A stretch of DNA of 64,000 nt from Octopus vulgaris (lineage: Eukaryota). The position numbers and the translations under genes are program-made. The notes below the pieces were generated by a model. That model searched no databases. It saw only the letters and a list, made by a program, of their open reading frames with translations, and was not told the origin of the DNA. This document shows positions 47,173 through 50,832 of this stretch, piece by piece; the first letter of the stretch is position 1, and every line of letters starts with the position of its first letter. The stretch lies in NCBI GenBank assembly GCA_951406725.2, contig OX597820.1:117986001-118050000 (forward strand), given 5' to 3'.

Positions 47173-50100
47173 GTTCTGAGTTCAAATTCCGCCGAGGTCG
47201 ACTTTACCTTTCATCCTTCGGAGTCGATTAAATAAGTACCAGTTACGCATTGGGGTCGATATAATCGACTTAATCCATTTGTCTGTCCTTGTTTGTCCTC
47301 TCTGTTTAGCCTCTTGTGGGTGATAAAGAAATAGGTATTTCGTCTGCCACTACGTTCTGAGTTCAAATTCCGCCGAGGTCGACTTTGTCTTTCATCCTTT
47401 CGGGGTCTATTAAATAAGCACCAGATACGCACTGGGGTCGATGTAATCGACTTAATCCGTGTGTCTGTCCTTGTTTGTCCCCTCTGTGTTTAGCCCCTTG
47501 TGGGTAATAAAGAAATAGGTATTTCGTCTGCCGTTACGTTCTGAGTTCAAATTCCGCCGAGGTCGACTTTGTCTTTCATCCTTTCGGGGTCTATTAAATA
47601 AGCACCAGATACGCACTGGGGTCGATGTAATCGACTTAATCCGTGTGTCTGTCCTTGTTTGTCCCCTCTGTGTTTAGCCCCTTGTGGGTAATAAAGAAAT
47701 AGGTATTTCGTCTGCCGCTACGTTCTGAGTTCAAATTCCGCCGAGGTCGACTTTGTCTTTCATCCTTTCGGGGTCTATTAAATAAGCACCAGATACGCAC
47801 TGGGGTCGATGTAATCGACTTAATCCGTGTGTCTGTCCTTGTTTGTCCCCTCTGTGTTTAGCCCCTTGTGGGTAATAAAGAAATAGGTATTTCGTCTGCC
47901 GTTACGTTCTGAGTTCAAATTCCGCCGAGGTCGACTTTGTCTTTCATCCTTTCGGGGTCTATTAAATAAGCACCAGATACGCACTGGGGTCGATGTAATC
48001 GACTTAATCCGTGTGTCTGTCCTTGTTTGTCCCCTCTGTGTTTAGCCCCTTGTGGGTAATAAAGAAATAGGTATTTCGTCTGCCGCTACGTTCTGAGTTC
48101 AAATTCCGCCGAGGTCGACTTTGTCTTTCATCCTTTCGGGGTCTATTAAATAAGCACCAGATACGCACTGGGGTCGATGTAATCGACTTAATCCGTGTGT
48201 CTGTCCTTGTTTGTCCCCTCTGTGTTTAGCCCCTTGTGGGTAATAAAGAAATAGGTATTTCGTCTGCCGTTACGTTCTGAGTTCAAATTCCGCCGAGGTC
48301 GACTTTGTCTTTCATCCTTTCGGGGTCTATTAAATAAGCACCAGATACGCACTGGGGTCGATGTAATCGACTTAATCCGTGTGTCTGTCCTTGTTTGTCC
48401 CCTCTGTGTTTAGCCCCTTGTGGGTAATAAAGAAATAGGTATTTCGTCTGCCGCTACGTTCTGAGTTCAAATTCCGCCGAGGTCGACTTTGTCTTTCATC
48501 CTTTCGGGGTCTATTAAATAAGCACCAGATACGCACTGGGGTCGATGTAATCGACTTAATCCGTGTGTCTGTCCTTGTTTGTCCCCTCTGTGTTTAGCCC
48601 CTTGTGGGTGATAAAGAAATAGGTATTTCGTCTGCCGTTACGTTCTGAGTTCAAATTCCGCCGAGGTCGACTTTGTCTTTCATCCTTTCGGGGTCTATTA
48701 AATAAGCACCAGATACGCACTGGGGTCGATGTAATCGACTTAATCCGTGTGTCTGTCCTTGTTTGTCCCCTCTGTGTTTAGCCCCTTGTGGGTAATAAAG
48801 AAATAGGTATTTCGTCTGCCGCTACGTTCTGAGTTCAAATTCCGCCGAGGTCGACTTTGTCTTTCATCCTTTCGGGGTCTATTAAATAAGCACCAGATAC
48901 GCACTGGGGTCGATGTAATCGACTTAATCCGTGTGTCTGTCCTTGTTTGTCCCCTCTGTGTTTAGCCCCTTGTAGGTAATAAAGAAATAGGTATTTCGTC
49001 TGCCGTTACGTTCTGAGTTCAAATTCCGCCGAGGTCGACTTTGTCTTTCATCCTTTCGGGGTCTATTAAATAAGCACCAGATACGCACTGGGGTCGATGT
49101 AATCGACTTAATCCGTGTGTCTGTCCTTGTTTGTCCCCTCTGTGTTTAGCCCCTTGTGGGTAATAAAGAAATAGGTATTTCGTCTGCCGCTACGTTCTGA
49201 GTTCAAATTCCGCCGAGGTCGACTTTGTCTTTCATCCTTTCGGGGTCTATTAAATAAGCACCAGATACGCACTGGGGTCGATGTAATCGACTTAATCCGT
49301 GTGTCTGTCCTTGTTTGTCCCCTCTGTGTTTAGCCCCTTGTGGGTAATAAAGAAATAGGTATTTCGTCTGCCGTTACGTTCTGAGTTCAAATTCCGCCGA
49401 GGTCGACTTTGTCTTTCATCCTTTCGGGGTCTATTAAATAAGCACCAGATACGCACTGGGGTCGATGTAATCGACTTAATCCGTGTGTCTGTCCTTGTTT
49501 GTCCCCTCTGTGTTTGGCCCTTTGTGGGTAGTAAAGAAATAGGTATTTCGTCTGCCGCTACGTTCTGAGTTCAAATTCCGCCGAGGTCGACTTTGTCTTT
49601 CATCCTTTCGGGGTCTATTAAATAAGCACCAGATACGCACTGGGGTCGATGTAATCGACTTAATCCGTGTGTCTGTCCTTGTTTGTCCCCTCTGTGTTTG
49701 GCCCCTTGGGGGTAGTAAAGAAATAGGTATTTCGTCTGCCGCTACGTTCTGAGTTCAAATTCCGCCGAGGTCGACTTTGTCTTTCATCCTTTCGGGGTCT
49801 ATTAAATAAGCACCAGATACGCACTGGGGTCGATGTAATCGACTTAATCCGTGTGTCTGTCCTTGTTTGTCCCCTCTGTGTTTGGCCCCTTGGGGGTAGT
49901 AAAGAAATAGGTATTTCGTCTGCCGCTACGTTCTGAGTTCAAATTCCGCCGAGGTCGACTTTGTCTTTCATCCTTTCGGGGTCTATTAAATAAGCACCAG
50001 ATACGCACTGGGGTCGATGTAATCGACTTAATCCGTGTGTCTGTCCTTGTTTGTCCCCTCTGTGTTTGGCCCCTTGGGGGTAGTAAAGAAATAGGTATTT

Positions 50101-50832
50101 CGTCTGCCGCTACGTTCTGAGTTCAAATTCCGCCGAGGTCGACTTTGTCTTTCATCCTTTCGGGGTCTATTAAATAAGCACCAGATACGCACTGGGGTCG
50201 ATGTAATCGACTTAATCCGTGTGTCTGTCCTTGTTTGTCCCCTCTGTGTTTGGCCCCTTGGGGGTAGTAAAGAAATAGGTATTTCGTCTGCCGCTACGTT
50301 CTGAGTTCAAATTCCGCCGAGGTCGACTTTGTCTTTCATCCTTTCGGGGTCTATTAAATAAGCACCAGATACGCACTGGGGTCGATGTAATCGACTTAAT
50401 CCGTGTGTCTGTCCTTGTTTGTCCCCTCTGTGTTTGGCCCCTTGGGGGTAGTAAAGAAATAGGTATTTCGTCTGCCGCTACGTTCTGAGTTCAAATTCCG
50501 CCGAGGTCGACTTTGTCTTTCATCCTTTCGGGGTCTATTAAATAAGCACCAGATACGCACTGGGGTCGATGTAATCGACTTAATCCGTGTGTCTGTCCTT
50601 GTTTGTCCCCTCTGTGTTTAGCCCCTTGTGGGTAGTAAAGAAATAGGTATTTCGTCTGCCGCTACGTTCTGAGTTCAAATTCCGCCGAGGTCGACTTTGT
50701 CTTTCATCCTTTCGGGGTCTATTAAATAAGCACCAGATACGCACTGGGGTCGATGTAATCGACTTAATCCGTGTGTCTGTCCTTGTTTGTCCCCTCTGTG
50801 TTTAGCCCCTGGGGGGTAGTAAAGAAATAGGT
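47173..50832 (+). repeat. Tandem array of ~20 head-less SINE-B bodies, 184 bp unit
   Basis: CGTCTGCC recurs at 47341+184n up to 50653 (19 units), plus a diverged first unit at 47173-47340. Each unit is B-box (GAGTTCAAATTCC) + Nin/Deu-like core + Tx1-like tail. Confidence 0.96.

Follow-up and report, generated by a model that had tools for sequence, protein, structure and literature searches.

The 64,000-nucleotide stretch of Octopus vulgaris DNA analyzed here (assembly GCA_951406725.2, contig OX597820.1, positions 117,986,001 to 118,050,000 of the forward strand; hereafter "the window", in whose coordinates all positions are given) contains a tandem array of units derived from a short interspersed element (SINE), together with dispersed copies of the same SINE and several long interspersed elements (LINEs). 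The array (47172-50832) has a period of 184, 19.9 copies, 98% matches and 0% indels according to Tandem Repeats Finder; cutting it at GTATTTCGTCTG gives 19 unit starts whose spacings are exactly 184 in 18/18 cases, and the whole amounts to 20 copies, namely 19 indel-free full units of 184 bp and a truncated first unit (u0). The array unit is an Octopus SINE minus its 49-nt head, which monomers of the family carry 5' of the unit. Searching the window by BLAST, three full monomers (A, 13286, plus strand; B, 16671, minus; K, 55638, plus), two trimers (E, 34978, minus; H, 51647, minus) and five older relatives were found, and all evidence at the level of the family comes from the three monomers and two trimers of this single 64-kb window. 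A previous interpretation made from the letters of the array (the sequence-only reading) had proposed a SINE origin and a multimeric seed, both of which are supported. Table 1 gathers the coordinates of the features.

Within the array, unit position 16 alternates between C and T from u1 to u13, the longest alternating run (13 units; p ~2e-4 when the 19 unit states are shuffled). CCGTTACG recurs every 368 bp, at 47531, 47899, 48267, 48635, 49003 and 49371; CCGCTACG occupies the units between these and is also present in each of the last seven units, and the first full unit has CCACTACG. Among units 1-12, mean pairwise differences are 0.8-1.0 at even lags vs. 1.7-2.0 at odd lags. Three units of this first block (u1, u7 and u9) have a single private change each, and the tail of u12 is transitional to the second block, where five exact occurrences of TTTGGCCCCTTGGGGGTAGT (49697-50433) lie in the five identical units u13-u17. 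Both the strict alternation with a 368-bp period and the five monomeric units with a common motif had been seen in the sequence-only reading and hold, but its term "dimeric higher-order repeat" was too strong. Classical higher-order repeats of the alpha-satellite type are composed of clearly diverged monomers, their higher-order copies being far more alike, and here the two monomers differ at 1/184 bases. With a single base of difference between its halves, the dimer amounts to a variant pattern of period 2, repeated in six pairs, and not to a higher-order repeat in this sense, and such a pattern has already been published for squamate SINE-derived satellites. As to the edge units, described as more diverged, this is so for the 5' partial unit (92% identical to block 1) and not for the last one (u19, 98.4%).

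The limits of the array are also informative. At its 3' end the SINE terminus is followed by GGT, and the first run of four T (T4) comes later, at 50846; the array itself contains no T4 run on either strand. The truncated first unit has neither head nor target-site duplication (TSD), and two of its deletions are in common with H1, the first unit of trimer H. No target duplication flanks the array as a whole (p 0.78), and the copy of another repeat that is cut short just upstream marks a 5' junction that has been rearranged, with loss of the head. All 19 full units carry the same four private bases, which points to a single local founder, and the array includes at least seven types of junction.

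Table 1. Features of the window: position, strand and main characteristics
Feature	Position	Strand	Description
Monomer A	13268..13537	+	Full SINE; perfect 18-bp TSD starting AGAAAC (exception)
Monomer B	16424..16686	-	Full SINE; perfect 15-bp TSD starting GTATG; extra G at 3' junction
Trimer E	34384..34995	-	Head close to consensus, then two array-type units and a last unit with yet another tail
3' end of related LINE	45950..46064	+	37/42 vs. SINE tail; second such end at 29327-29438
Copy of another abundant interspersed repeat	46870..47163	+	Cut short just 5' of the array
Truncated first unit (u0)	47172..47334	+	Starts at unit position 19; second subfamily
Block 1	47335..49542	+	12 units with a 368-bp period (C/T at unit position 16, six pairs)
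Block 2	49543..50462	+	Five identical monomers; tail variants G158, G167, G173
Two terminal units	50463..50832	+	Tail variants of their own
Trimer H	51056..51666	-	Head decayed; two array-type units followed by a last one whose tail differs
Empty-site homologue of K target	52140..52186	+	45/47 bases; no SINE; holds GGTATT
Monomer K	55620..55894	+	Full SINE; perfect 19-bp TSD starting GGTATT
Tx1-like L1-type LINE	56480..62380	+	Open ORF1 and ORF2; within (CTAT)n tract; 3' end resembles SINE tail

The full element of ~233 bp behaves as a SINE: it occurs as short dispersed copies in the 64 kb, its monomers are flanked by TSDs of variable length (18, 15 and 19 bp; p <0.001 each), and its 3' tail is shared with a LINE. 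At 37 of its last 42 bases the SINE agrees with the 3' terminus of a LINE remnant (46017), a terminus that is itself ~75% identical to the one of the intact LINE of the window; scores of the tail against LINE ends were 64, 59 and 45, vs. a maximum of 35 among 1133 other window tiles. This element, apparently intact, has an ORF1 of 537 codons (56954-58567) without Pfam match and an ORF2 of 1149 codons (58625-62074) with APE endonuclease, reverse transcriptase (RT) and zf-RVT domains, whose best named relative is a Tx1 protein and whose closest database protein is 71% identical over 80%; no octopus names, and Tx1 names, were obtained among the database matches of ORF2. Because the tail matches the remnant and the remnant matches the intact Tx1-like LINE, the SINE has a Tx1-type tail. 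Being flanked by (CTAT)n on both sides, the intact LINE is likely a member of a family that targets microsatellites, as Kibi and Koshi do. All three LINE 3' ends of the window run into (TATC)n-type tracts, and a Tx1 family with the target of the SINE was not found among them. Besides these, members of the same LINE group lie in a (TATC)n tract at 29327-29880 (a 3' end together with pieces of the endonuclease, 81%, and of the RT, 89%, the latter inverted), and a remnant at 25135-25515 on the minus strand resembles the C-terminal end of an RTE-type LINE ORF, without Pfam match.

Regarding the promoter, the B-box of the unit agrees with the consensus GWTCRANNC at 8/9 positions, a form found family-wide, and the degenerate A-box of the head at 10/12; the exact A-box and B-box patterns gave 0 matches and were then relaxed. 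None of the array units has the head with its A-box, as the sequence-only reading had noted, and the B-box that it named is an inexact one. No tRNA homology was detected (0 genes by ARAGORN, no Rfam match at the gathering score and no tRNA match at E up to 10); decayed SINE heads often escape tRNA detection models, and tRNA-derived SINEs named OK, OR1 and OR2 were reportedly described from the same genus by Ohshima and Okada in 1994. The family can be placed in Octopus because translations of the SINE body match eight distinct predicted proteins, three of them named Octopus bimaculoides; tail-to-head joint motifs were found in 0/8 of these proteins. The three O. bimaculoides models (P0038, P0039 and P0040) contain an in-frame antisense translation of the body, either by exonisation or by annotation error. 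Stray copies of the SINE numbered 0 in exact-pattern scans of bacterial and archaeal genomes and 0 in plasmid and phage searches. The idea that the body might be a Meta domain found no backing, since a comparison by eye with bivalve Meta and CORE sequences gave no clear match. A 239-bp inverted duplication of 97.9% identity (52185-52423 and 54854-55091) holds an older relative of the SINE without the B-box stretch.

Every internal array joint connects the tail end directly to GGTATTTCG, which is the SINE sequence from head position 49 onward; among the 27 array-type tail ends of the window, GGT comes next in 26 and GGTATTTCG in 23. Outside the array, GGTAT follows in 6/7 tail ends and the full head motif in 4/7, these four being in-register joints (two in E and two in H), and the remaining three run into the monomer targets GTATG (B, after an extra G), GGTATTG (K) and AGAAAC (A). 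By the criterion of Kojima, SINEU-like elements have more than 20% of copies flanked by one target type, and the values here are 4/7 or 6/7, in a tiny sample whose copies are perhaps not independent. Two of the three monomer TSDs start with GTAT or GGTATT, the motif of the SINE's own head; the background per position is 0.007 for GTAT and 0.0002 for GGTATT, and the coincidence has p ~6e-4 allowing a one-base offset, with a motif picked after looking. Since the SINE-less homologue of the K target also holds GGTATT, this motif was there before K inserted, and the extra G of B fits an RNA ending past the joint. As a separate observation, AGAAAC (13268-13273) also occurs at SINE head positions 16-21, and a second type of in-register joint may exist elsewhere in the genome.

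We give about an even chance to an origin in which the SINE inserts into its own head by target priming, thereby gaining units in register and giving rise to multimers; local duplication of a dimer and of a monomer would then have built the array. A Tx1-type enzyme would prime reverse transcription at GGTAT-like sites, either through endonuclease preference or through pairing of read-through RNA; this RNA would end in the same letters as the target, and the best GGTAT-like site would be the SINE's own head. With the head as target, the new complementary DNA (cDNA) would be homologous to the flank, so the 5' joint would form by annealing, and each insertion would either gain one headless unit in register or replace the head. 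Because the unit lacks a T4 run, RNA polymerase III (Pol III) would read through multimers and feed the loop. Local copying, by unequal exchange or replication slippage, would have produced about six copies of one C/T pair and five of another monomer, and the head of the array would have been lost by deletion. The sequence-only reading had proposed two successive amplifications; two separate local expansions agree with the data, and no order between them is shown. There are precedents for the single steps: the target preference of Tx1 is passed to SINEU elements, with sequential tandem insertions (Kojima, 2015; PMC4494074), and annealing of read-through RNA to the target raises integration of R2Ol (PMC6795142).

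The two trimers have the same joint as the array. Trimer H, inverted at ~240-280 bp from the array, is enclosed by a decayed but clear 14/15 TSD (51652-51666 and 51056-51070; p 0.0008), and a weak, decayed TSD of 13/16 (p 0.025) encloses the whole of trimer E. Since the tail of the inner units differs from that of the last unit, and the duplication encloses the whole, the inner units of E and H are not local duplicates of their host. The ages of the parts may also differ: private differences in H amount to 15/170 in the head and the last-unit body vs. 3/241 in the inner bodies (p 3e-4), and in E they rise from 5' to 3' (1/120, 5/121 and 11/118). The array and trimer H face each other across a spacer (50833-51070), an arrangement that might favor replication stalling and expansion.

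The main rival, which we consider possible although unlikely, reads the same trimers in another way: the joint would have arisen once, in a multimeric source gene whose full-length transcripts disperse as multimers, and units with mixed tails would be produced when reverse transcriptase switches templates between SINE RNAs. Own-head insertion would then not have to occur repeatedly. Several facts suit such a source. H1 has the two deletions of u0 and H2 shares GTC and TTAAAT with the unit after u0, the second-subfamily units are in multimers in 4/4 cases and none is a monomer, the unit lacks a T4 terminator, the head of E is consensus-like, and an RNA ending in GGUAU would also account for the targets of B and K. 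However, the head of H and H3 look older than H1 and H2 and E shows its age gradient; the two trimers are unlike each other in subfamily, in the order of their units and in the last tail, and several switches per insertion would be needed; and the pairs u0/H1 and u3/H2 are only ~94% identical, as unrelated family members are.

SINE-derived satellites are usually explained at the level of DNA only. Here, that would mean unequal recombination between neighboring SINEs, or at the GAAAT microhomology of tail and head, with spreading of the joint by gene conversion. Such an origin has been proposed for the squamate (PMC10702118) and bivalve (PMC11481361) arrays; moreover, an inverted trimer adjoins the octopus array, and both blocks need DNA-level copying anyway. 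Nonetheless, the three loci share one joint to the base, which a crossover at GAAAT does not produce, the hosts E3 and H3 lack the tail of their inner units, and the GTAT/GGTATT targets of the monomers are left unexplained, so that we deem this origin improbable. Even less probability is assigned to a rolling-circle origin in one or two events, the template being a circle of 184 or 368 nt, either SINE RNA that was cut in the head hairpin and ligated to its own tail or excised circular DNA. The headless, near-identical units, the strict dimer period and a joint adjoining the head hairpin would agree with it. Against it, the units of E and H are not products of a single template because they are 85-92% alike and mixed, the array has its at least seven junction types, no target duplication flanks it, and the hairpins are no more stable than shuffles. 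In fact, arguments based on hairpins were dropped altogether, as the folds of head, tail and joint were no better than shuffled sequences (z -0.02 to -0.94).

Variation within the array is strikingly local. Its nine variable sites (15, 16, 158, 163, 165, 167, 168, 172 and 173) all fall (9/9) within a 43-bp arc around the joint, and the 141 positions from 17 to 157 are invariant; the chance of such clustering is 2.5e-5 for nine independent sites and 0.01-0.05 if these are merged to four or five events. In contrast, dispersed copies vary along the whole unit, with 15 variants in the arc and 47 outside (Fisher p 2e-5), and 4/9 of the array variant alleles are also present in them (p 0.04-0.10). 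The two variant clusters coincide with the expected start of reverse transcription and with the expected second-strand cut, as given by the duplication lengths of 15-19. CpG decay was rejected as a source of the variants (1/9 lies in a CpG, and 10/11 CpGs never vary). A speculative extension of the own-head model, for which our expectation is low, is an autocatalytic retro-satellite: each own-head event of the Tx1-type machinery would add one headless unit in register and create a new target, the aim being sharpened by read-through RNA, and abortive events would rewrite the flanks of the joint, like a natural form of prime editing, over ~30 bases behind the nick and in the second-strand cut zone at +15 to +19. 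Such rewriting, if true, would explain the variable sites clustered at the joint, the invariant positions 17-157 and the alleles shared with dispersed copies. On the basis of two or three private changes in 2.2 kb, and with a Jukes-Cantor (JC) distance of 0.09 for 25 million years as the basis of the rate (PMC13282606), the age of the array is roughly estimated at a few hundred thousand years, a figure that is void if these changes arose through conversion.

Near-identical tandem units are also error-prone, several variants lie beside G/C runs or CpGs, and the variation is oddly local; context-dependent sequencing error may be its source. It is very unlikely, in our opinion, that copy number, alternation or junction variants are an artefact of assembly or base calling. 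The window has no N, the 19 units are indel-free though each has 15 homopolymer runs of at least three, the 1149-codon ORF nearby is intact, and a 13-unit alternation together with a five-unit block is not a product of random error. An array of 3.7 kb is, furthermore, shorter than a long read.

Several points weigh against own-head insertion as the seed of the array. The sample consists of one window with three monomers and two trimers, one of whose monomer targets (A) starts with AGAAAC, and a two-headed locus, the plain footprint of nested insertion, is absent from the window. The private counts of E3 and H3 include family-level differences; the head of E must have been replaced, given its 0/49 private differences; and the age argument drawn from H is weakened because divergence in monomer K is likewise higher in the head (6/49) than in the body (7/184; p 0.03), the three monomers pooled giving 9/147 for heads vs. 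16/552 for bodies (p 0.08). The succession of u0 and a GTC-type unit repeats that of H1 and H2, in agreement with a multimeric source common to both. In the window, the one intact Tx1-like LINE lies in (CTAT)n, and the GGTAT-targeting partner is assumed to be a sibling family. Finally, the DNA-level mechanism of expansion is left between unequal exchange and slippage, which are not distinguished, and expansion at this level leaves the clustering of variation at the joint unexplained.

A role for the array has also been considered. The sequence-only reading had suggested a dense TFIIIC-binding platform, which would be compatible with any of the origins above; such a claim is unsupported, the sole related feature being the B-box with one mismatch, and maintenance of the array as a TFIIIC-binding or boundary platform is the least probable of the explanations weighed here. 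There are 20 B-box-like motifs at 184-bp spacing, in a form common to recently mobile copies; on the other side, the box is off consensus at 1/9 positions, and the array is very young and lies amid microsatellites and repeats. Extra-TFIIIC (B-box-only) sites are defined by TFIIIC occupancy without Pol III. No host exon was detected among the 120 candidate ORFs scanned (of 174), as none passes the Pfam cut-off, although a scan of this kind may overlook short exons. In all likelihood, the array is a selfish by-product without function. Two side observations can be added. The block-2 change A158G creates TGGCCCCTTGG (49699-49709, and the same place throughout u13-u17), which agrees with an A-box consensus at 9/11 positions and lies 54 bp 5' of the next B-box; a rebuilt promoter at this place is doubtful because the usually invariant A is missing. 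Three copies of a 100-bp AT-rich unit (88%), unrelated to the SINE, lie at 45362-45664.

Among the known systems, the closest are the squamate SINE-derived satellites sSat1-3, where subvariants alternate in as many as 25% of the long loci of snakes, a pattern interpreted there as dimer-wise elongation (Vassetzky et al., 2023; PMC10702118). An sSat has at least four middle monomers and a unit shorter than the SINE, and the 18 middle units of 184 bp are of this kind; as to the longer terminal unit of sSats, every array unit already reaches the SINE 3' end, and a headed first unit is found only in E and H. An sSat is further characterized by many loci with a subtelomeric or heterochromatic location. 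Both systems have in common the shortened unit and the greater uniformity of longer loci, and the unit of snake sSat3 likewise begins within the head, at position 42, and retains box B; they differ in phylum and SINE, and the octopus unit extends precisely to the SINE 3' end, where it meets a motif identical to the insertion target of the monomers. Within mollusks, Scapharca broughtonii has tandem SINE arrays of 4-15 units (Martelossi et al., 2024; PMC11481361), one type of which consists of a headed first SINE, head-truncated repeats and one enclosing target duplication. Those units also lack the tail end (an internal-duplication pattern), whereas octopus units keep the whole tail and their hosts may have another one, and the partners there are CR1, CR1-Zenon, L2 and Nimb, not Tx1. 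Crocodilian SINEU-3 borrows the target preference of Tx1-Mar and also forms sequential tandem copies (Kojima, 2015; PMC4494074); its target is a Mariner element, and its tandem copies are whole with the target duplication between them, unlike the octopus joint, which has no spacer and whose target is likely the SINE's own head. In R2Ol (PMC6795142), 3' flanking target sequence in the RNA also anneals and improves integration, and upstream homology relates to the 5' joint; R2Ol is autonomous, with a restriction-like endonuclease and a target in ribosomal DNA (rDNA), there is no tandem growth, and the analogy is mechanistic only. Neither an octopus SINE array nor an own-head-targeting SINE was found among the papers listed in the literature searches, most subscription journals and Repbase lying outside the search.

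SINEs make up 11.6% of the O. vulgaris assembly (PMC13282606). Since SINE-derived satellites with alternation and mollusk SINE arrays have already been published, the array is of a known kind, and should the self-targeting rule fail, the locus would be just a first cephalopod example of that published class. The first tandem copies of a retroposon on its way to becoming a satellite are usually ascribed to chance recombination. If, on the other hand, this SINE aims at its own head, satellite seeds would be made by rule, thousands of times and with a fixed joint, and a graded series from monomer to satellite would be expected in the octopus genome.

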